This document shows, in pieces, positions 8,678-60,912 of a stretch of DNA of 64,000 nt (the stretch's first letter is position 1; each line of letters opens with the position of its first letter). The notes below the pieces were generated by a model. That model saw nothing but the letters and a program-made list of their open reading frames with translations, was not told the origin of the DNA and did not search any database. The stretch is from positions 91,265-155,264 of the forward strand of contig CAVRXT010000012.1 in NCBI GenBank assembly GCA_963725285.1. The letters run 5' to 3'. This DNA comes from an uncultured Acidobacteriota bacterium (GTDB taxonomy: Bacteria > Acidobacteriota > Terriglobia > Acidiferrales > UBA7541). The translations under genes were made by a program, and so were the position numbers.

Positions 8678-8752
8678 GGCGCTATGGTGCAACGGTTAGC
8701 ACGTGGCCCTTTCAAGGCCAAAATACGGGTTCGATTCCCGTTAGCGCTACCA
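8678..8752 (+). tRNA. tRNA-Glu (anticodon UUC)
   Basis: Manually folded as a 75-nt cloverleaf. The 7-bp acceptor stem is GGCGCTA/TAGCGCT with G1-U72. The D-stem is GTGC/GCAC, the anticodon stem TGGCC/GGCCA, and the loop CTTTCAA. The T-arm is ACGGG-TTCGATT-CCCGT, with discriminator A and an encoded CCA. Confidence 0.8.
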
Positions 8753-9901: not shown

Positions 9902-10309
9902 GTGATAGCCAGAAAAACGAGGTATTGTCCCATTCTTGCGGCGTCAGGTCTCGTGGAAGCCGTCCTATTCCTGCACTTGGTTTGGTGTGGCTGGGTTTTG
10001 CTCGGCTGGACTGCGACGCGCTGCCGCCCGCTTCTACGAGTGCTGCACATCACTTCTCTCATTTACGCCATCGTCATCGAATTGGCTCCTTGGCCTCCAT
10101 GTCCTCTCACCGTGATAGAAACGTGGCTTCAGGCACGCGCAGGTATCGAACCCGCGCATGGGCCGTTTCTGGTGCGTGTCCTCGATGCAGTTGTGTATCC
10201 CGACCTGCCGGAGTGGTTAGTCGTCGGCTGTGCGGTGTTAGTTTGCGTGGCAATCCTCTCGGCGTATGTGTGGCGCTATCATCGAAGGACTGTAAGCGGC
10301 CACTGGTGA
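9902..10309 (+). CDS. DUF2784-like small membrane protein
   Basis: Hydrophobic N-terminus, a CPLT motif and conserved Trp/Pro pattern (APWPPCPLTVIETWLQ). Lower GC codon usage. GTG start. Confidence 0.45.
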   Translation: MIARKTRYCPILAASGLVEAVLFLHLVWCGWVLLGWTATRCRPLLRVLHITSLIYAIVIELAPWPPCPLTVIETWLQARAGIEPAHGPFLVRVLDAVVYPDLPEWLVVGCAVLVCVAILSAYVWRYHRRTVSGHW

Positions 10310-10370
10310 CGGAAACCCGATGCTAAATAGCAGGAGAATGCTCGGCTTCGCGAAAGCCGGGCTGGTCTCT

Positions 10371-10637
10371 TCAATGGGTTATCGGTGCGTTCTTCGTGTA
10401 CCTGCCGAGGGGGAATTCCGCGAGACACGCCGCAACACTCACCACGAAGACAACCAGCAGGAAACGCCCCGGCTGTAATGGGACAATGTGGAATTCAGCG
10501 AGGACTAGGTAGACGGCTGCCAGAAAGAAGAATGGCCCCGTGATGTAGCAATGCAGCCGACCGCCGCGACCCGCATTCACGATGCAGCCAGCTCCTGCCA
10601 CGGCGAGCGCAGGAATCCAAAGCCAAACGCGACCCAT
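10371..10637 (-). CDS. Hypothetical small membrane protein (88 aa)
   Basis: Three hydrophobic stretches. No family assignment. Confidence 0.3.
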   Translation of the reverse strand: MGRVWLWIPALAVAGAGCIVNAGRGGRLHCYITGPFFFLAAVYLVLAEFHIVPLQPGRFLLVVFVVSVAACLAEFPLGRYTKNAPITH

Positions 10638-10732
10638 CGGCTAATAGTATCTGGCGACCAACATCACTGTTGGCAGACACCAATTCAGGCAAGCCCACGG
10701 GGCTGCAAACCGAATCCCGGCTCATGCAATTG

Positions 10733-11137
10733 TCATCCATGATTGAATCCCGCCAGAAGGTGTGGGGGCATCGTTAGGGACACGCGGCTCACGCCTACGG
10801 CTTGCGTCAACAGAGGAAACAGAATCGAGGACATCGACTGAGATTCCTCCGAACTTAGCTTCGAATTTGCTTTCACGGACAACAGTTCATCGACAAGGTC
10901 GGCCAAGCCAAGCGCGTGAACCACGGGGCCGTCCAAAAATACGGCACGCGGAAGCTGGTCGCCCCACTGCGCGTCTTGGCGGTAGACGGCGACCTCATCC
11001 CAATCAATGCCATGTTGGTTACAGCAGCGTGGCCGGGGATGCTCCGAGTCGGATTTCAGGCGGCGTGCCAGTTGTGCCGCAAATAGATGGTTCTTGTCCC
11101 AATACTGCGTGACTCTCGGGTCGGAGAGACGCGCCAT
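10733..11137 (-). CDS. Hypothetical protein (possible thiol-redox accessory of the metal operon)
   Basis: An ORF follows the MerT-like gene on the same strand. The start is ambiguous: 11194 is listed, and ATG 11137 (MARLSDPRVTQYW) is plausible. Contains a CC pair (CCNQHG). Confidence 0.35.
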   Translation of the reverse strand: MARLSDPRVTQYWDKNHLFAAQLARRLKSDSEHPRPRCCNQHGIDWDEVAVYRQDAQWGDQLPRAVFLDGPVVHALGLADLVDELLSVKANSKLSSEESQSMSSILFPLLTQAVGVSRVSLTMPPHLLAGFNHG

Positions 11138-11211
11138 TACTCCTTGTGCTCGGACTGGAATAGTCTGTCGGCAGAATTGGTTCCCACACCGCAAACACGC
11201 GAATGCGCGGG

Positions 11212-11721
11212 TCAGGATTTTGCTTTAGCACATCCTGAACTGCGGAGGCCCCCCGCAGACATGTTGGTCAAGTCGGCGAAAGCAGCAGGACTATACGCAC
11301 GTCTCCCGACGCCGCGTTGAATGCCGCACGCAGTTGGTCGAAGTTCTCTGACACTAGATAGGACGAGAGGCGGCTGCCCGGCTGGAACTCTTTGCTGGCT
11401 CGAAATATCCGCCAGCAAGCCCGCCAGCATTTGAGGGAAGAACAGCAGAAAGACAACCAGCACCGCCGCCAAGCCCAAGAGGATAAGTGCAGTCCTGCTT
11501 TGCCGCGTTCGACATTTCATACCTCGATAGACTTGAAAAAATCCCGCCCCGAGCATGATAACGGAAAGCCCTAGAAGCCAAGGACGAGCGGCGTTCAGGA
11601 AGACAGAAGCCCCGGCCAGCCCGGCTGCACCCAAGAACGGCAAGGGGAGGCAACATCCCAGCGTGAGGAGCGAGGAGACCATCGCACCCAACGACGCGGC
11701 GATTGTCTTTCCACTCGCCAT
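11212..11721 (-). CDS. MerT-like heavy-metal (mercuric) transport membrane protein
   Basis: TM1 carries a Cys pair (LLTLGCCLPLPFLGAAG). TM2 ends in ...FQVYRG and a third TM follows, giving MerT topology. An extra ~60-aa C-terminal tail is present. Confidence 0.5.
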   Translation of the reverse strand: MASGKTIAASLGAMVSSLLTLGCCLPLPFLGAAGLAGASVFLNAARPWLLGLSVIMLGAGFFQVYRGMKCRTRQSRTALILLGLAAVLVVFLLFFPQMLAGLLADISSQQRVPAGQPPLVLSSVRELRPTACGIQRGVGRRAYSPAAFADLTNMSAGGLRSSGCAKAKS

Positions 11722-12035
11722 CAGACCTCCAAATTACGTTCCCTTCGGATGGCGTCGCGCAGTCTCTGATGAGACGGAGCGCCATTGCCATCCGCATAAA
11801 GGCGACACATCAATCCGAAAGAACCGGTCTGTACCTCTTCGGGTTCAATGTCGCGGCCATTTATGCGGATGGTTGGTGAGCCGGGAAATCTCAGCGATTG
11901 AGCCATCGCTGCGCTGGTCACCAAGACCTCATTTAGATGCGCTTCGAGACTCTCCCCCGCGAGAATTTCACGTAGCTGTTCAAGGGCGACAGCATGATTT
12001 GGACAGTTCGGGACGTACAGGACTTCAATTTTCAT
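11721..12035 (-). CDS. Thioredoxin-like small protein with a CPNH (CxxC-like) motif
   Basis: The N-terminus is MKIEVLYVPNCPNH. It is translationally coupled to the MerR gene (TGA/ATG overlap at 12032-12035) and to the MerT-like gene. Confidence 0.5.
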   Translation of the reverse strand: MKIEVLYVPNCPNHAVALEQLREILAGESLEAHLNEVLVTSAAMAQSLRFPGSPTIRINGRDIEPEEVQTGSFGLMCRLYADGNGAPSHQRLRDAIRRERNLEV

Positions 12036-12460
12036 CCAGCCCCCTCATGCTTGGAACCATTATAAGCAGTCAGAACCGGGCAACGACCGTTTTGCTTTCC
12101 ACGCGGACGCCTCAGTTGGGAGTTGCACTTTGCCAGCGCATCCTTCAATTCCGCTTCTAGCTTGGCGAGGGCAACGCGCTTTGCGTGAATATCGTGCAGT
12201 TTGTGGTCAAGCATCTTCTGCACTTCGAAGCACGCTCGACGGTCATTGCTTCGGAGCGAGAGGAACTCACGAATTTCGTTCAGAGAAAATCCGAGAGCCT
12301 GCAAACTGCGGATGAATTGCAAGGTTGAAAGGTCGGTTGAAGAATAGAGCCGAAAACCGCCTTCGCTGCGCGGGGGCGCTGAGAGAAGGCCACTCCGCTC
12401 GTAGAACCGTATGGCATCTATGCTTACTCCGACCCGTTTCGAGATTTGACCGATTTGCAT
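12032..12460 (-). CDS. MerR-family metal-responsive transcriptional regulator
   Basis: HTH MQIGQISKRVGVSIDAIRFYERSGLL, a coiled-coil dimerisation helix, and C-terminal Cys residues (CNSQ...GRCP). ATG 12460 is the likely start (12496 is listed). Confidence 0.8.
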   Translation of the reverse strand: MQIGQISKRVGVSIDAIRFYERSGLLSAPPRSEGGFRLYSSTDLSTLQFIRSLQALGFSLNEIREFLSLRSNDRRACFEVQKMLDHKLHDIHAKRVALAKLEAELKDALAKCNSQLRRPRGKQNGRCPVLTAYNGSKHEGAG

Positions 12461-52997: not shown

Positions 52998-53303
52998 ATG
53001 TCTGAGGAAGCTCTAGGAATGATCGAGACCAAGGGGTTGATTGGCTCGATCGAAGCTGCCGACGCCATGGTCAAGTCGGCGAACGTCACCTTGGTCGGCA
53101 AGGAATACATCGGCTCCGGTTACGTCACCGTCACCGTGCGCGGAGATGTGGGTGCGGTGAAAGCGGCCACTGATGCGGGCGCGGCAGCAGCGCGCCGCGT
53201 GGGCGAGCTCGTCTCCGTACACGTGATCCCGCGTCCGCACGAGAACATCGAGGCGATTCTTCCGGGCGGCGCTGGACGAGAGTCGTCGGCTGGGAAACGC
53301 TGA
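52998..53303 (+). CDS. Bacterial microcompartment shell protein, BMC-H (PduA/PduJ/EutM-like)
   Basis: [30 protein letters not shown]...[37 protein letters not shown] is near-identical in pattern to the PduA family (Pfam PF00936). Confidence 0.85.
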
Positions 53304-53390
53304 AGTTAGGCTGATTCGCCACGGACGGCGCCGCAGCCAGTCGCACCGGCGCTGACGCAGCCATTCCAAAACTGGTCCTTACCGGCGGGG

Positions 53391-55376
53391 TTGAACGGAT
53401 TGAGCCTTCGTGACCGCGATTTAATTTCCATCCAAGACGCCCGCGAGAGTGTCGAGCGGGCGGCGCAAGCCCAGAAAAAATTTGCGTCGTTCCCCCAAGC
53501 GCAGATCGATGCGGTAGTAGACGCGTGCGCCGAAGCGGCCGCCGGCGCCGCGGAATCGCTGGCGCGTCTGGCCGTGGAAGAAACCGGCTACGGCAACGTT
53601 CCCGACAAAATTCTGAAGAACCGTCTCGCCGCGGTCGAAGTTCATCGCGCCATTCGCGGCATGAAGACCGTCGGAATCGTGCGCGAAGATGCCCAACACA
53701 AAATTCTGGAAGTGGCCGAGCCGGTGGGCGTGGTTGCCGCGATCATTCCCTCCACCAATCCCACTTCCACCGCAATTTACAAAACTCTGATCGCGCTGAA
53801 ATCCCGCAACGCCATCGTGCTCAGCCCGCATCCCACCGCCGCGCGCTGCATTTGCGAAGCCGCCGCGGTGCTCGAACGCGCCGCGCGAAAAGCAGGAGCG
53901 CCCGACGGCATTATCGTTTGCCTGCAAAATCCCACGCTGCCGGGAACCCAGGAATTGATGCGCCAACGCAGCGTCGGCGTGATCCTGGCCACTGGCGGAA
54001 CCGGATTGGTTCGCGCCGCTTACAGTTCCGGCAAGCCTGCTTACGGCGTAGGCCCCGGTAACGTCCCGGCGTTTATCGAGCGCACCGCGGACGTGCCGAA
54101 AGCCATCGCCGATATTTTTGCGGGCAAAACGTTTGACTACGGCACCATCTGTTCATCCGAGCAAGCCGTCGTGGTCGAAGATGCGGTCAAGGATTTGGCG
54201 ATCGCCGAATGCACTCGCCAGGGCGCGCACTGGCTCTCCGCCGACGAAATTCGCCGCCTCGGAGCCGTGGTAATCCTTCCCGGCACTTCCGCGCCCAATA
54301 CCAAAATCGTGGGCCGCGCCGCGACAGTGGTTGCCGAAATTGCCGGAATCCAAGTGCCCGCTTCCACGCGGGTGCTCATCGCGCGGCTCGAAGCCGTTGG
54401 CCGCGAGGTTCCGCTCTCGGCCGAAAAGCTCTCGCCCATTCTGGCTTTTTATACGGTTCCGGATCTGGCCGCCGGCATCGAGCGTTGCCGGCAACTCTTG
54501 CAGTTCGGCGGCTTGGGCCACACCGCTTCGATTCATTCGCAGAATGACGCGGCCATCCGCGAATACGGCCAGGCCGTGCCGGCGTTCCGAATTTGCGTCA
54601 ACACCGCGTCGGTGCACGGCTCAATCGGCTACTCGACCAATCTCTCTCCCGCGATGACTCTTGGCTGCGGCGCGCCGGGCGGCAACATCACCTCCGACAA
54701 TATTGGTCCGCAACACCTGATGAATATCAAGCGTATCGCCTGGGAGTCTCGCGGCATCGAACACCGCACCATTCCCGCGGATCAGCGCATGTCCGCCACG
54801 GCGACGCCTTCCCAAACCGCTGCGGTGGCAACGGCTGCCGCCGCGCGCGCCGATGCAAACCCTACCGTCATTCCCGATCGTCGTTTAATCGCCAACATGG
54901 TCGAGAGAGTTCTGAGCGCTCGGGGAATCCCGCGGGGCGCAGCGATGGCCACAGCCGCCGCCGCTTCGTCGGGAACGCCCAGGCCGAGCGCCGCAGACGT
55001 AGCTACTTCCGCGGTGAGCGCCATTTTTGACCGGCGATCGCCAGGCCACAGCGATCCGTCGGCTTCAGTCTCCGCTGCGGCCACCGCGGCCAGCTCGGCG
55101 GAGCACCGTGGCGCGGGAAAATCCTCTGCCGAGGCCGGACCTGCATCCACATCCGCGGGAACGCGCCCAACCGCACCCGCGGCGACCCCGGCGCTCAAGA
55201 TACCCGATTTTGTCAGCGAAAATGACGTCCGCATGGCCATCACCCGTAGCGAAAAAATTTTTATTAGCACCCAAACCATCGTCACGCCTTCCGCCCGCGA
55301 CCTGGCATCCACCCACGAAGTATTCGTTGAGACCGCCAGCGCCCCCAGCGCCCGCCCTCGATCGCTTCGAGATTGA
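53391..55376 (+). CDS. CoA-acylating aldehyde dehydrogenase (PduP/EutE-type) with a ~200-aa low-complexity C-terminal extension
   Basis: Key motifs are [74 protein letters not shown] and [11 protein letters not shown] (catalytic Cys). The ORF continues in-frame for ~200 Ala/Ser/Thr-rich residues. Confidence 0.85.
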
Positions 55377-55451
55377 GGGATTCACGGGTGGCTTCGATTC
55401 TCAATCCCGCTTGCCGCCTGGCGCATCTAACCCCGGGAAGGGAATCGCACC

Positions 55452-57801
55452 ATGCGCAACGCTGAAGCGGCTCGCTACGCTCGCTGGGCCGCCACCGTCT
55501 CCATCTTGATCGTCACCCTGACTGCCGGCGTTTACATCCGCCGCGCGTGGCGCGCTTCCCATACCGGCGGCGAGACCCCTGAACCTATCCCCGATTCCGT
55601 GCAGCAACGTTCCGCAGTGTTTTCGCATTCCAAAGTGGAGTCCAACAGAACCATCTACACGATTCGCGCTTCGCAAGCCACCGAGTTCAAGGAACACAGC
55701 CTGCTGCAAGACGTCTGGATCACCATCTATGGCCAAGAGGGCGCGCGCAACGACAACGTGCACACCCGGGAATGCAGCTACGAACCCAACAGCGGCAATA
55801 TCCGCTGCCAGGGCGTGGTGCAGATCGATTTGGAAAGCGCGGATCAGGCCAAGGAACCTGGGCACCCTCACATCATGCACGTGAAGACCCAGGATTTCTC
55901 GTTCGATGAGAAAACCGGTGACGCGAGTTCCGATCAGCCGGTCGAAATTCAGTTTCCTGGCGGCAGTGGACACGGCCGGGGGCTCACCTACAACGCCAAT
56001 CGCACCGACCTCCGCCTTGAGCACGACGTCGAGTTCCAAATGGGTTCACCAACCGACCCTAAGGCTCCGGTCACCACCTTTGCCGGCAGCGCGCTGGATT
56101 TTCAGCGCAGTATTTCCACCGCTCAACTGTTCGGGCCAGTCCGCGTCAACCAGTCCGGACGCGTGCTCACATCGGGCCTGCTCACTTTGCTTCTCGACAG
56201 CGAGATGCACGCCCGGCACGTGCGGGCCTCCAACCACCCTGCCTTGCACTCCAGCGATGTCCAGCCGACGACTACCGGCACGATCGAAGTTACCTCCGAT
56301 GAAATGGACGCCGACCTGGACCCCGCGGGCTGGGCGCAGCAAGCCCAATTTTCCGGAAACGTGCGCGCCCACCGCCGCAACGGCAAGGAAAATGCCAATT
56401 TCACCGCGCAGCAAGCGGTTCTGCTGATGGAGCCGCGCGATAATTTGCTGCGCTCGGTGACCGCCAACGGCGGCGTGCACGTCGATATGCACAGCGATAC
56501 GCCCAGCGGGCCGCAATCGCGCACCCTGGACACCGCCGCGCTGCGCCTCGATTTTCATTCCACGCCGGGCCCCGATCCCAGTAGCCAAATCTCTGCTGCC
56601 GAAACGCTGGCCCCCGGCGCCATCGGTCTGAATTCCCCAGGCGACACCACCCAGGTGTACGCCACGAAATTCAATGCGCACTTCGACGCGGCCGGACGAT
56701 TCGATTGGCTCGAGGGGCATTCCGAAACGGAGATCAACCGCCAGATAAAATCAGACCCGCCGCAAAAGATTACCGCGCGGGACCTGGCGGTGACCTTCGC
56801 CAATGATGGGAGCTGGACCAACTTGAAGCTCGATCGCAACGTGCGCTTCCATCAGGCCGACCGGTCCGCGGAATGTGACCGCGCTACCATCGCCCACGCC
56901 ACCAACATTATCCATCTCGACGGTTCGCCCGCCGTGGCCGACCTGTCCGCCCGCACCACCGCCGGGGCTATCGAAATCAATCAGTCTACCAACGACATCC
57001 ACGCGGAATCTTCGGTCCTCACCACTTATCGAAATTCCACCCCGGACAAAGGTCCCGACCATCGGCGCCGGAATCGCGCACGTGTCCTCGGACACCCTGG
57101 CTGGCAACGGCGCTTCCGGACACTTGCTTTATTCCGGCCACGCCCGCTATTGGCAAGGCGATACCACGCTCAACGCCGACGTGATCGAAATTACCCGTGC
57201 GCAGAACCGCATCGACGCCCACGGCAACGTGATCGCCGCGCTCCCGCAGCTTCCCGGCCCGGGCCTTCCCGGAACTATTGCCCGCGCCAACCCGAAGCCC
57301 ACCCGGCCGGTCATCTGGGACGTTCGTGCGCCGGTCTTGCATTATTGGAACGACACCGGGAAGGGCCTGCTGGAGGGCGGTGTGAATGCCACCTCCACCC
57401 AGGGCGCACTGCATTCCGAGACTCTCGATCTGTTTCTCGCACCGGCAGCCCAGCCCGACGCCAGCGGTCAGCTGCCCAAAGCCGCTCCCACGTCAGCTCC
57501 CAGCACCGCGACGCCTAAGTCGGCCCCGGCAACTTCCCCAGGTCGCCAGCTCGAGCGCGCGGTGGCTCAGGGATCGGTGGTGGTGCAGCAAGGCGACCGC
57601 CGCGGCATGGCCGATCAAGGCGTTTACACCGCAGCCGATGGCCGCTACGTGCTCTCCGGCGGCGATCCGACGATTATCGATGCGGCCAGCGACACCACCA
57701 CCCAAGGCCATTCGTTGACCTTCTATGTAGCCAGTGATACGATTTTGATAGACGCCCAAGCGGGTTCCAAAACGCTGACGAAACACAGAGTTGAGAAATG
57801 A
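55452..57801 (+). pseudogene. LptC-like N-terminal TM region joined to OstA/LptA-like repeats (LPS transport periplasmic bridge), interrupted by an apparent +1 frameshift near 57040-57060
   Basis: Frame 0 (55452-57518) has an N-terminal TM and LptC/OstA-like repeats up to ...TTYRNSTPDKG and then Arg-rich garbage. Frame +1 (listed from 56875) becomes LptA-like from ...VPTIGAGIAHVSSDTLAG... to the stop at 57801, just before lptB. Confidence 0.55.
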
Positions 57802-57807
57802 AGCAGC

Positions 57808-58533
57808 ATGCTGAAACTTCAGGCCTCCGAGCTCACCAAATCTTACCGAGGCCGCAAGGTTGTCGATAACGTTAACTTGGAGATTCAGCAGGGAGAAGTA
57901 GTTGGTCTGCTCGGACCGAACGGCGCAGGTAAGACTACAACGTTTTACATCCTGGTCGGGCTGGCCCGGCCGGACTTCGGCCGCGTCCTCCTGGATGGGG
58001 ATGACATCACCGACCTCCCGATGTACCTGCGGGCCCGCAGCGGCATCAGCTACCTTCCACAAGAGCCTTCGGTTTTTCGTAAACTAACGGTCGAAGAGAA
58101 CCTGCTCGCGATTCTGGAAACCCTGCCCCTGTCGTCGGAGCAGCGCCGTGACCGGGTAGAAGAGTTGTTGGCGCAGATGGGCTTGGAGGGTGTGCGCAGT
58201 AGCCGTGCCTACGTTTTGTCGGGCGGCGAGCGCCGGCGCCTCGAAATCGCCCGTTCGTTGGTATTGCTGCCTTCGTTTGTGCTGCTGGACGAGCCATTTT
58301 CGGGGATCGACCCCCTGACCGTGGTTGATTTACAAAAGATTATTGCTAGCTTGTCCGCAGCCGGCATCGGAGTACTAGTGACCGATCACAACGTCCGTGA
58401 AACACTGGCAGTGACGAATCGGGCCTATATCATCAATGGAGGCAAGATCTTCCGGGCTGGTACTCCGGCCGATCTTTCCGGCGACCCGGAAGTACGGCGG
58501 GTGTACTTAGGCCAGGGGTTCCGTCTGAACTGA
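57808..58533 (+). CDS. lptB: LPS export ABC transporter ATP-binding protein LptB
   Basis: Walker [10 protein letters not shown] and signature [15 protein letters not shown]. In conserved lptCAB-rpoN context. Confidence 0.9.
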
Positions 58534-58569
58534 TTGGCTGCTATGGTCGAATAGTACTTTGAATCGCCT

Positions 58570-60009
58570 ATGAACTGGCTAGCGCCCAAACTTAACCTGC
58601 GCATCGCCCAAAAGCAGATCCTTACCCCGGGTCTGGTCCAGATGGTCAGCGTGCTGGCGCTGAATCGCCTCGAACTGCGCGAAATGATCAACCAGGAAAT
58701 CATGGCCAACCCGGTCTTGGAAGAGTTGGGTGATGACGGGGTGGTCAGCGAGAATTACACCGACGAGAACTTCGTCAAGAACGAAACCGAAAAGGTCCCC
58801 GAGGGCGCCGGCGCCAACCCTTTTGACGAATTCGATTTTGGTTCCTTCTTTGGCAGATACCTGGACACCGGCACCGGCACCAAGGGCGGCGAACACGAAG
58901 ACGTTGAACGCCCATCCTTCGAGAAATTTCTCTCTTCCGGCGCCAGCCTTTCCGATCACCTGAAATGGCAAATCAGCGTGGCCATTTGCAGTGAGACCGT
59001 CCGCGAAATCGCCGAAGACATCGTCGGCAATCTCGACGAGAACGGCTACCTCGCCGCCACCATCGCCGAAATTGCCTCCGCCAGCAACTACTCGCCCGAG
59101 GACATGGAAGAAGCGCTCACCATGGTCCAGGAATTTGACCCGCCGGGCGTCGGCGCGCGCGATCTGGCCGAGTGCTTGCTCCTCCAACTCAAGGTGATCG
59201 ACCCGCAAAACACTTTGGCTCAGCAGATTGTCGCCGAGCACCTGAAACTGCTGCAGAACAATCAGCTCAAGGAAATTGCCCGCGCTCTGAATCGTCCGGT
59301 GGAATTGGTCAAGCGCGCGGTGGACGTCATCAAGCGCCTCGATCCCAAGCCCGGTTTGCGCTACAACAAAACCGAGCCGCGCCTGGTCGAGCCCGATATT
59401 CAATTCCGCAAAGTGGATGGCGAGTGGCAAGTGATCATGAACGACGACGATTTGCCGCAGCTCCGCCTGAATCCTACGTACCGCCGCTTGCTGGCCCGCG
59501 ATGCCGCCGACCGCGAAGTGCGCAATTACGTCAAAGAGCGCTTCAGCGCGGCCATCCAGCTGATGAAAAATATCGAGCAGCGCAAACACACCATCGTTCG
59601 CGTCTGCCATTCCATTCTTCGCAGGCAGCAGGATTTTCTCGATTTTGGCGTCGATCACCTCAAGCCCATGATGATCAAGGAAGTGGCGGAAGAGGTGGGC
59701 GTGCATCCCTCCACCGTCAGCCGCGCGGTGGCCAATAAGTATTGCCACACTCCTCAGGGTGTTTTCGAGCTGCGCTACTTTTTTTCCGAATCGGTTAACG
59801 GACCTTCCGGCAACGAAATGTCCCTGCTTTCGCTCAAACGCCGGGTGAAGAAAATGATCGAAGACGAAGATACCAACCACCCGCTCACCGACGAACAGAT
59901 CACCCAGAAGCTATCCGACGAAGGCATCCGCGTCACTCGCCGCACGGTGGCCAAATATCGCGAAGACCTTCGCATTCCCAGCACCCATCGTCGCCGGGTG
60001 AAGGCCTAA
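58570..60009 (+). CDS. rpoN: RNA polymerase sigma-54 factor RpoN
   Basis: Sigma-54 activator-interacting N-terminus, core-binding region and C-terminal RpoN box (ARRTVAKYRE). Confidence 0.9.
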   Translation: MNWLAPKLNLRIAQKQILTPGLVQMVSVLALNRLELREMINQEIMANPVLEELGDDGVVSENYTDENFVKNETEKVPEGAGANPFDEFDFGSFFGRYLDTGTGTKGGEHEDVERPSFEKFLSSGASLSDHLKWQISVAICSETVREIAEDIVGNLDENGYLAATIAEIASASNYSPEDMEEALTMVQEFDPPGVGARDLAECLLLQLKVIDPQNTLAQQIVAEHLKLLQNNQLKEIARALNRPVELVKRAVDVIKRLDPKPGLRYNKTEPRLVEPDIQFRKVDGEWQVIMNDDDLPQLRLNPTYRRLLARDAADREVRNYVKERFSAAIQLMKNIEQRKHTIVRVCHSILRRQQDFLDFGVDHLKPMMIKEVAEEVGVHPSTVSRAVANKYCHTPQGVFELRYFFSESVNGPSGNEMSLLSLKRRVKKMIEDEDTNHPLTDEQITQKLSDEGIRVTRRTVAKYREDLRIPSTHRRRVKA

Positions 60010-60021
60010 TCGGCAGGGTCT

Positions 60022-60912
60022 GTGAAACGACGAACCCCACCCGGTCGCCCCACCCGCCAATTAGTGATTCTCACCGGCCTGGCCGGTTCCGGAAAAGGCT
60101 CCGTGCTTAAGACTTTCGAAGACCTGGGTTTCTACTGCGTCGATAATTTGCCGGTCGGCTTTATTCCCACCTTCGCCGAACTCTACCTGCAAGGCAGCAG
60201 CGAAATTGATCGCGCCGCGCTGCTGGTGGACGCTCGCGAAGGGGAAGAGCTGGCCAAGTTTCCGGAGATCTACCGCAAACTGCGCAACGAGCTTTCCGTC
60301 TCTTTGGTTTTCATTGAGGCCAGCAACGATGCGCTGATGCGCCGCTTCAGCGAAACGCGCCGCCCCCACCCCATGGGCCGCGATCTCACCGTCCGCCAGG
60401 GCATCGAGCAGGAACGCCGCCGCCTGGCGCCCATCCGCCGCATGGCCGATGTGGTGATCGACACCACCAAGTTCAATGTCCACGAGCTGCGCCAGCTCAT
60501 CACCGGCCAATTCCAGAATCCCGGCCGGCGCCCGCTGCTGGTCTCGGTAGTCAGCTTCGGATATCGCTACGGCATCCCGGCGGACGCCGATTTGGTCTTC
60601 GATGTTCGCTTTCTCCCCAATCCCCATTTCGTCGCCAAGCTCCGCCCGTTCAGCGGCAAGGACAAGCGGGTGGTCCGCTACATTCGCTCCTTCCCGCAGA
60701 CCGGCCAATTTCTTCGCCGTCTCGAGAGCATGCTGGCCTACCTGATCCCGCATTACATCCGGGAAGGGAAGAGCTATCTCACGGTCGCCATCGGCTGCAC
60801 CGGCGGCCGCCACCGCTCGGTAATGCTAGCCGAAGAAATCAGCCGCGGCCTGCACAAGCGCAAATACGAAGCCAAGACCGTCCACCGCGACATCGATAAG
60901 TCCACCACTTGA
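60022..60912 (+). CDS. rapZ: RNase adapter protein RapZ (YhbJ)
   Basis: P-loop VILTGLAGSGKGSV. Characteristic RapZ C-terminal region IGCTGGRHRSV. Confidence 0.85.
   Translation: MKRRTPPGRPTRQLVILTGLAGSGKGSVLKTFEDLGFYCVDNLPVGFIPTFAELYLQGSSEIDRAALLVDAREGEELAKFPEIYRKLRNELSVSLVFIEASNDALMRRFSETRRPHPMGRDLTVRQGIEQERRRLAPIRRMADVVIDTTKFNVHELRQLITGQFQNPGRRPLLVSVVSFGYRYGIPADADLVFDVRFLPNPHFVAKLRPFSGKDKRVVRYIRSFPQTGQFLRRLESMLAYLIPHYIREGKSYLTVAIGCTGGRHRSVMLAEEISRGLHKRKYEAKTVHRDIDKSTT

Follow-up and report, generated by a model that had tools for sequence, protein, structure and literature searches.

The C-terminal tail of an Acidobacteriota microcompartment aldehyde dehydrogenase: a putative encapsulation peptide and a terminal module with probable relatives in EutQ, EutT and PduL

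In the survey of Sutter et al. (2021, Nat Commun 12:3809, PMC8217296), the type I aldehyde dehydrogenases (AldDhs) of bacterial microcompartments (BMCs; IPR013357, dominated by EUT2) carry encapsulation peptides (EPs) at their C-terminus, and the type II enzymes (IPR012408, EutE/PduP) at their N-terminus. Supplementary Data 2 of the same work describes the AldDh of the ACI compartment, which is encoded on a satellite locus and has an EP near its C-terminus, behind which comes a ~50-aa domain whose function is given as unknown. A gene for the shell protein BMC-H is sometimes found with it. ACI occurs mainly in subdivisions 4 and 6, and its main locus encodes a PF00596 aldolase with a C-terminal EP, a hydroxyacid dehydrogenase, a BMC-P triplet and BMC-H (PMC8217296). 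Here we analyse an AldDh gene of an uncultured Acidobacteriota bacterium, situated next to a BMC-H gene in a stretch of 64,000 nucleotides (assembly GCA_963725285.1, contig CAVRXT010000012.1, positions 91,265 to 155,264), hereafter called the window. The product ends in a long tail. We think it fairly probable that this protein is an ACI-type microcompartment AldDh, encoded in a two-gene satellite locus with BMC-H, and that its tail combines a core-binding EP helix with a module anchoring it to the shell.

Two other microcompartment proteins enter the comparison. In Salmonella, residues 1-99 of EutQ are sufficient to target green fluorescent protein to the compartment (Yang et al. 2025, Sci Adv 11:eadx9774, PMC12487888). 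EutQ deleted of aa 9-41 (H1/H2) stays with the cargo aggregate and loses the shells, while EutQ deleted of aa 62-99 (H3/H4) stays with the shells. The EPs of EutC and EutE are bound by H3/H4, with a dissociation constant (Kd) of about 6 uM for EutC1-20, and EutQ's N-terminal part is not required for catalysis but is indispensable for assembly (PMC12487888). In pull-down experiments, the EutQ-EutM interaction requires EutQ residues 1-100 and charged residues of an EutM helix (Held et al. 2016, Sci Rep 6:24359, PMC4827028). The other protein is PduM, described in the literature as having no known homologues outside Pdu. Its N-terminal EP (aa 1-23) is directed to the core, and without PduM the core and the shell come partly apart (mSphere 2025, PMC12108088).

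The best family match of the window AldDh was NCBIfam TIGR02518 (EutH_ACDH, acylating acetaldehyde dehydrogenase), with 600.7 bits over aa 8-508, just below the cut-off of 620.1. The score was far lower with the EutE/PduP-type model PRK15398 (264.7 bits, cut-off 403), and the N-terminal half of the bifunctional AdhE scored 533 bits. Pfam Aldedh matched aa 15-277, and the core contains the catalytic-cysteine motif TICSSEQ. The window AldDh resembles type I enzymes (IPR013357/TIGR02518) by its best match, by an alignment that extends to aa 508 and thus spans the helix described below, by the order core, linker, amphipathic helix, and by having no N-terminal EP. It differs in what follows: the EP of type I enzymes is the end of the protein, 20-90 residues past the core, whereas the window AldDh continues for ~145 residues beyond it, with a second linker, in some family members a second helix, and a folded module. 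The ACI enzyme looks like a type I AldDh in which another linker and a folded module, joined on behind the EP, have left the EP inside the chain. An initial annotation of the window, made from the sequence alone, had taken an N-terminal EP as the norm for PduP/EutE enzymes, which holds for the type II branch but not for type I, the nearest to the window AldDh, where EPs are C-terminal (PMC8217296).

Compared with the published ACI AldDh, we found no difference in architecture. A ~50-aa domain comes after an EP situated near the C-terminus, no N-terminal EP is present, and the gene is of the Acidobacteria type and adjoins BMC-H, with no other microcompartment gene at the locus. All the ACI features that could be tested within 64 kb were thus found, namely Acidobacteria relatives, satellite placement with BMC-H, and an EP plus a ~50-aa domain. 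The only departure is taxonomic: the nearest relatives of both protein and locus are Acidobacteriota, in metagenome-assembled genomes (MAGs) of Terriglobia or 'Candidatus Acidiferrales' (up to 90% protein identity), compared with subdivisions 4 and 6 in the published account. We conclude that the tail architecture of the window AldDh has already been published for the ACI AldDh, and that the window contains another orthologue.

To delimit the tail, we used the 120 best matches of the AldDh, which come from many independent assemblies and are Acidobacteria MAG proteins. In their alignment, core conservation stops at ~aa 466, and the tail accordingly comprises aa 467-661 (nt 54789-55373, 195 aa), in good agreement with the ~200-aa extension placed at 54786-55376 by the initial annotation. 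All 120 homologues are uninterrupted (593-744 aa) and have the tail, so that none of them is an orthologue lacking it, which the initial annotation had named as refuting evidence. The linkers are of low complexity, as had been noted (A 34%, S 17%, T 12%, P 10%), and two islands stand out between them (Table 1). We compared the codons of the window AldDh with those of an 85%-identical orthologue (locus L003), counting synonymous-only and amino-acid-changing differences separately. In the terminal island 11 differences were silent and 1 changing, and in the helix island 9 and 3; in linker 1 the counts were 4 silent and 11 changing, and in linker 2, 24 and 41. The codon pattern is relaxed in the linkers and that of purifying selection in the islands, and therefore the frame of the tail is translated and both islands are under purifying selection. 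An AlphaFold2 model of aa 442-661, built with 35 sequences, gave a single helix at aa 497-510, linkers with a predicted local distance difference test score (pLDDT) below 50, and a terminal mini-domain with a pLDDT of 90-96. We conclude that the tail is real, as the initial annotation had supposed, and that it has two selected islands, a helix and a mini-domain that are predicted to fold.

The terminal module was found on all 24 intact Acidobacteria AldDhs encoded beside BMC-H, and on 0 of 35 AldDhs of other phyla. On these sequences, the presence of the module on an AldDh is lineage-specific. In four further MAG assemblies (L006, L007, L059 and L070; ~10300-12400) the orthologous AldDh is split into two or three open reading frames (ORFs), and the module falls in a frame of its own; the likeliest cause is indel errors of long-read assembly, not true gene fission. 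Beyond the module, about 7 of 35 aligned homologues (e.g. P0022, P0025, P0084) have an extreme C-terminal motif, (T/S)(R/Q)L(D/E)Y. The window AldDh ends in ...RSLRD, without this motif.

In the first island, aa 495-516, the family consensus reads PDRxxIARIVERVFxARGIPRG, and identity exceeds 90% in many columns. Within it, the AlphaFold2 helix at aa 497-510 has a pLDDT of 72-85 and is flanked by linkers of variable length that are predicted to be disordered. The highest 14-residue hydrophobic moment of the tail (0.54) falls in this island, but neither the 18-residue EP window nor the 14-residue segment flagged in the initial annotation had a hydrophobic moment above that of its own shuffles. 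We therefore consider the amphipathicity of the helix as moderate, a claim made on the 14-residue maximum, the AlphaFold2 helix and the conservation, longer windows not exceeding their own shuffles. Type I AldDhs of Clostridia, Treponemataceae and Chloroflexota have terminal helices that are similar to the helix motif, D-x-x-x-I-A-x-x-V-E-x-V-(F/L). Examples from non-Acidobacteria type I-like AldDhs in the BMC loci that we fetched end in ...DEIERIAQRVLAELRKRQVQ and ...DVDELVMEIVKRLQAM, and the comparison with other BMC AldDh tails proposed in the initial annotation thus brought out a likeness at this helix. The EP definition quoted in PMC8217296 (Aussignargues/Kerfeld) is an amphipathic helix of ~15-20 aa with a flexible, poorly conserved linker, which is both required and sufficient to bring cargo into the compartment; the helix and the linker are found here. 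We infer that the helix at aa 497-510 functions as an EP.

Two amphipathic stretches had been proposed in the tail. The first (aa 495-514, nt 54873-54932) is conserved and contains the helix just described. The second (aa 536-549) is not supported as a helix in the window AldDh, where AlphaFold2 gave it a pLDDT below 50. An equivalent of aa 534-549 is present in about two thirds of the aligned relatives and missing in about one third (alignment A3). In many of them it reads ...AAEIVARVFG... or ...VVDRFLSxR, and more distant family members have two clear helices. In this alignment, aa 534-549 corresponds to a facultative second EP-like helix of the relatives.

The structured terminal block had been placed at aa 603-647 (nt 55197-55331), and this block is indeed near-invariant and confidently modelled. 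In the full-length alignment the near-invariant island spans aa 607-648. For the tail, the initial annotation had offered two possibilities, C-terminal peptides for encapsulation or shell docking, and a small domain fused to the enzyme; both kinds of element are present, an EP-like helix and a folded domain of ~45 aa. In more than 120 homologues the near-invariant columns of the mini-domain are F607, E610, A616, K622, T632, P633, A635 and R636. Modelled alone with a 45-sequence alignment, it gave a mean pLDDT of 81.7 and a beta-alpha-beta-beta-alpha-beta fold. Direct searches brought little. Pfam and NCBIfam scans of the whole tail returned only noise (HpaB, DUF3464, RipD) besides a lead to TIGR02536, and no Pfam family matched the mini-domain. 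No significant match came out of a sequence-profile search of the PDB queried with the module, in which a 2-oxoacid dehydrogenase E2 subunit-binding domain (3rnm_E, E 0.37) ranked first, and a PDB search with a cross-family profile gave only myc-tag artefacts. A hidden Markov model (HMM) of the module matched 656 of 1.8 billion representatives; the 150 of these that were listed are all AldDh C-termini or fragments thereof. The module is C-terminal in these 150 and in 28 Acidobacteria loci.

A different picture emerged from more sensitive comparisons. When 20 diverse copies of the AldDh module were scanned against NCBIfam, the matches were weak but consistent, confined to microcompartment families, and always located at a protein terminus. 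TIGR02536 ('eut_hyp') was matched by 17 of the 20 copies (best E 1.9e-4, model positions 164-205 of 207), EutQ by 6 (model positions 4-39 of 233), EutT by 3 (best E 0.0017, model positions 3-46 of 267), and PduM by a single one (E 0.14). With hhalign, the module profile aligned with E. coli EutT at 83.6% (aa 2-42) and with E. coli EutQ at 78.3% (aa 4-42). EutQ and EutT were also the two best matches of the module HMM among the six-frame ORFs of the E. coli eut region.

We extended the search to 80 BMC loci of many phyla, gathered by a genome scan with the BMC-H protein and containing 15,985 ORFs. The module HMM retrieved the Acidobacteria AldDhs and a group of other proteins: the C-terminus of a PduL phosphotransacylase (E 2.6e-6), two EutQ N-termini (2.9e-6 and 3e-3), the C-terminus of an unassigned protein (4.4e-5), and the C-termini of TIGR02536/flavoprotein-like proteins, which over the module region align with the final ~43 positions of the PduM model. 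The PduL-type enzyme is encoded in a BMC locus of an uncultured Clostridiales (L010, 5202-6224), with the module at aa 297-335 of the ORF; the module therefore spans more than one enzyme class. In EutQ, EutT, PduL and TIGR02536-like proteins it is terminal, as it is in AldDh.

A profile-profile comparison of AldDh modules with non-AldDh modules gave a probability of 98.6% (E 5e-16), a value inflated by the fact that the alignment used (A4) had partly been gathered with the AldDh-domain HMM. Leave-out HMMs, run on the 724 ORFs of the window, reduce this concern about circularity without removing it. With each of them, aa 606-646 of the AldDh was the sole significant match: E was 6e-7 with an HMM made from Enterobacterial EutQ and EutT only, 5e-5 with EutQ only, 7e-5 with TIGR02536-like proteins only, and 2e-10 with all non-AldDh modules. 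A word-index search with the EutQ N-terminus yielded only short Enterobacterial fragments, many of them frameshifted, and hardly any added diversity. In our view, these profile comparisons give good support to homology between the mini-domain and the terminal module of EutQ (N-terminal), EutT (N-terminal), some PduL (C-terminal) and TIGR02536 (C-terminal).

The likeness to EutQ H1/H2 consists of profile homology over ~40 residues, (I/V)(T/S)xxD(I/V)RxA...I(I/V)TPxAR(D/E)xA, of two predicted helices at the same positions, and of a terminal location beside a flexible region. In both cases an EP-based interaction with cargo accompanies the segment, within one polypeptide or one system. The arrangement differs: in EutQ the module is N-terminal and attached to the EP-binding H3/H4 and to a cupin acetate kinase, whereas in the window it is C-terminal on the AldDh itself and paired with an EP, not with an EP receptor. 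PduM offers a parallel in logic, as it combines an EP with a body that is needed for core-shell attachment (PMC12108088), the same two-part scheme as in the AldDh tail, and the C-terminal ~40 positions of TIGR02536 are the strongest database match of the AldDh module. PduM and the TIGR02536 proteins differ from the AldDh in being small, non-catalytic or flavoprotein-like, with the EP at the opposite end, and the direct PduM match is weak. We did not find the link between the ACI AldDh domain and EutQ H1/H2 stated in the literature searched.

Putting these elements together, we propose that the EP helix (aa 497-510) would drive the enzyme into the cargo core and hold it there, and that the module (aa 605-648) would anchor the AldDh, together with the cargo core, to the shell's inner face. 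On its flexible Ala/Ser/Thr/Pro linkers, the AldDh would then be its own core-shell tether. By analogy with EutQ, the AldDh module would most likely bind a shell protein, and its partner might be the co-encoded BMC-H. In this BMC-H the KAATDAG helix retains the K and D that EutM requires for binding EutQ (PMC4827028), but the motif is general to BMC-H proteins. Whether the ~45-aa domain is, beyond ACI, an unnamed pan-microcompartment 'shell-anchor' module, and thus, next to the EP, a second general type of element for targeting to BMCs, is a wider proposal that we hold tentatively, at slightly less than even chances. The module recurs at the termini of the ACI AldDh, EutQ, EutT, some PduL and PduM/TIGR02536-like proteins, in Acidobacteria, Proteobacteria, Firmicutes, Poribacteria and Actinobacteria; in the literature searched, the ACI AldDh domain, EutQ H1/H2 and PduM are dealt with one by one.

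Several points weigh against this interpretation, in addition to the partial circularity of the profile comparison. The argument for shell binding by the AldDh module is the analogy with EutQ and no other. In EutQ itself, the shell role of H1/H2 was deduced mainly from the localisation of deletion mutants and not from measured binding of the isolated segment (PMC12487888). The relation between the module and EutQ H1/H2 is remote (~30% identity over 40 residues). The carriers of the module all handle CoA, ATP or NAD, which leaves room for a ligand-related role. Finally, the ACI main locus of the source genome lies outside the 64-kb window.

The main rival to a shell anchor is a protein-protein adaptor whose partner is not the shell. 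The module would then recruit a core enzyme, such as the phosphotransacylase or the aldolase, or cross-link AldDhs, in analogy with the peripheral-subunit-binding domains of the E2 chains of 2-oxoacid dehydrogenases. Long flexible Ala/Pro linkers carry the module as they do subunit-binding domains, and it occurs on several enzymes of one pathway (AldDh, PduL, EutQ and EutT). Pfam E3_binding was matched by 2 of the 20 module sequences (best E 0.0071), and the E2 subunit-binding domain that was the best, non-significant, PDB match (E 0.37) aligned with the module in the segment GRKTLATPAVRNLAMENNI. These E3_binding matches are however weak and cover the second helix only, and the sole experimental data on a homologous segment, those on EutQ H1/H2, point to the shell, cargo binding by EutQ being the task of H3/H4 (PMC12487888). 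We regard an adaptor as unlikely, though worth keeping in mind. A small ligand-binding or regulatory domain for a shared cofactor (coenzyme A (CoA), acyl-phosphate, ATP or NAD), with no part in assembly, seems to us considerably less probable still. The enzymatic carriers do all use nucleotide-containing cofactors, CoA and NAD for AldDh, CoA for PduL, ATP for the EutQ acetate kinase and the EutT adenosyltransferase, and the TIGR02536-like proteins have a flavoprotein-like domain. But for a domain that binds a cofactor 45 aa is little, no binding motif, glycine-rich or otherwise, was seen, and the module sits in every case at a terminus on a flexible tether, as targeting elements do. Moreover PduM is structural and not an enzyme, and its C-terminus matches the TIGR02536-like proteins over their module region; in EutQ the N-terminal region is needed for assembly but not for catalysis (PMC12487888).

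That the tail has no function at all, being a product of read-through, of a frameshift artefact or of the fusion of a downstream gene, is a concern in a high-GC genome where spurious ORFs are common. Overlapping spurious ORFs of 145-176 aa do run across the tail region on both strands, and the neighbouring lptC/lptA-like gene is frameshifted in the window. Yet the same uninterrupted architecture recurs in all 120 nearest homologues from many independent assemblies, both islands are under strong codon-level purifying selection, the terminal block folds with high confidence in the model, and the module is present in every one of the 24 intact Acidobacteria orthologues. We regard this explanation as extremely improbable, and its read-through or frameshift form as refuted by the homologues, the codon pattern and the intact orthologues.

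A side observation concerns the second half of the module (aa 628-643, 55272-55320), which resembles helix 1 of the peripheral subunit-binding domain in the E2 chains of 2-oxoacid dehydrogenases. This may reflect convergence or a very distant kinship of tethered protein-binding modules. Membership of the E3_binding family (PF02817), judged by a match to the family model and a helix-loop-helix fold, was tested and rejected.

What is new here is the proposed identity of the 'unknown' domain of the ACI AldDh as a member of a recurrent terminal module of microcompartment proteins, EutQ H1/H2 included. If the shell-anchor reading is true, the ACI AldDh would be a self-tethering cargo, linking core and shell without a separate linker protein. 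If, further, the module is a general shell anchor, it would provide a testable account of core-shell attachment in compartments that have no EutQ or PduB-like linker, a first functional handle on PduM and the TIGR02536 proteins, and a compact, portable tag, distinct from EPs, for attaching cargo to synthetic shells. It would also help to work out the function of the uncharacterised ACI organelle of soil Acidobacteria.

Table 1. Positions of the AldDh gene, its parts and the adjacent shell gene in the window
Feature	Residues	Nucleotides	Strand	Basis and remarks
BMC-H shell protein gene	~101 aa from ATG 52998	52998..53303	+	listed ORF from 52908; directly 5' of AldDh
Whole AldDh gene	661 aa plus stop	53391..55376	+	
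AldDh catalytic core	1-466	53391..54788	+	TIGR02518, AdhE N-terminal half, conservation profile, homologue N-termini
Linker 1	467-494	54789..54872	+	Ala/Thr/Pro-rich; column identity 0.2-0.5, indels; AlphaFold2 pLDDT 45-57
Putative encapsulation-peptide island	495-516	54873..54938	+	helix aa 497-510 = nt 54879-54920; conservation, AlphaFold2, codons
Linker 2	517-604	54939..55202	+	variable, indels; weakly conserved segment aa 534-549 (nt 54990-55037) inside
Terminal mini-domain	605-648	55203..55334	+	conservation, AlphaFold2, codons, profile comparisons
C-terminal end	649-661	55335..55373	+	low conservation, gaps, pLDDT ~56

At the other end of the protein, nine residues precede the motif DLISIQDAR in the listed ORF, and six in 91 of the 120 homologues, where the motif reads DLISIQ(D/E)AR. 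We therefore agree with the initial annotation that the AldDh has essentially no N-terminal extension, since only six residues precede the core in most homologues. A TTG at 53400 is an alternative start, giving MSLRDRD..., which is the beginning of several homologues. The listed starts of the AldDh (53391) and of BMC-H (52908) are probably both too far upstream; for BMC-H, ATG 52998 is the probable start because homologous loci call a 99-aa product there.

The ORF of the shell gene matched Pfam BMC (PF00936) with an E of 3e-29, was retrieved by a phmmer query with E. coli EutM at 8.8e-36, and has kept the motifs KAATDAG and PRPH. When E. coli EutM, EutN, EutS, EutL and EutK served as phmmer queries it was the only matching ORF of the window, and neither Pfam nor phmmer detected a second shell gene, BMC-P or EutN-like ORF in these 64 kb. 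The genome scan with the BMC-H protein did not retrieve the ACI main locus, as satellite-type loci alone were returned. Among these, the satellite locus of Pyrinomonadaceae is longer (L080, 10436-15233; also L061, L066, L068 and L070), but without an aldolase. In L080, BMC-H and AldDh are followed by BMC-P (PF03319), then in turn by proteins with an ACT domain, a zinc ribbon and DUF711, and last by another BMC-H, so that an ACT and DUF711 pair lies inside a microcompartment locus.

In the window, BMC-H and AldDh are flanked by a TonB-receptor-like gene on the minus strand and, downstream, by an lptC/lptA-like gene, lptB, rpoN and rapZ. BMC-H and an AldDh with the same tail are syntenic in the related MAG loci L001-L004, and the same arrangement is found in 28 Acidobacteria loci. 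In the window (region 52998-60912) and in L001-L004, the pair lies directly 5' of the housekeeping cluster made of an lptC/A fusion, lptB, rpoN and rapZ, in the same orientation. No terminator-like site was found between BMC-H, AldDh and lptC. This is an odd position for organelle genes, and the pair may be co-transcribed with the rpoN cluster. An Rfam scan for a regulatory RNA near the AldDh gene returned a distant tRNA (8678-8749), the sole Rfam match in the window. The lptC/lptA-like gene (55452-57801) is split into two overlapping frames, 55452..57518 and 56875..57801, where the syntenic loci encode a single protein of 777-778 aa. By tblastn, the frame changes at ~57049-57059, and the break is probably a sequencing or assembly indel, or else the gene is a pseudogene.

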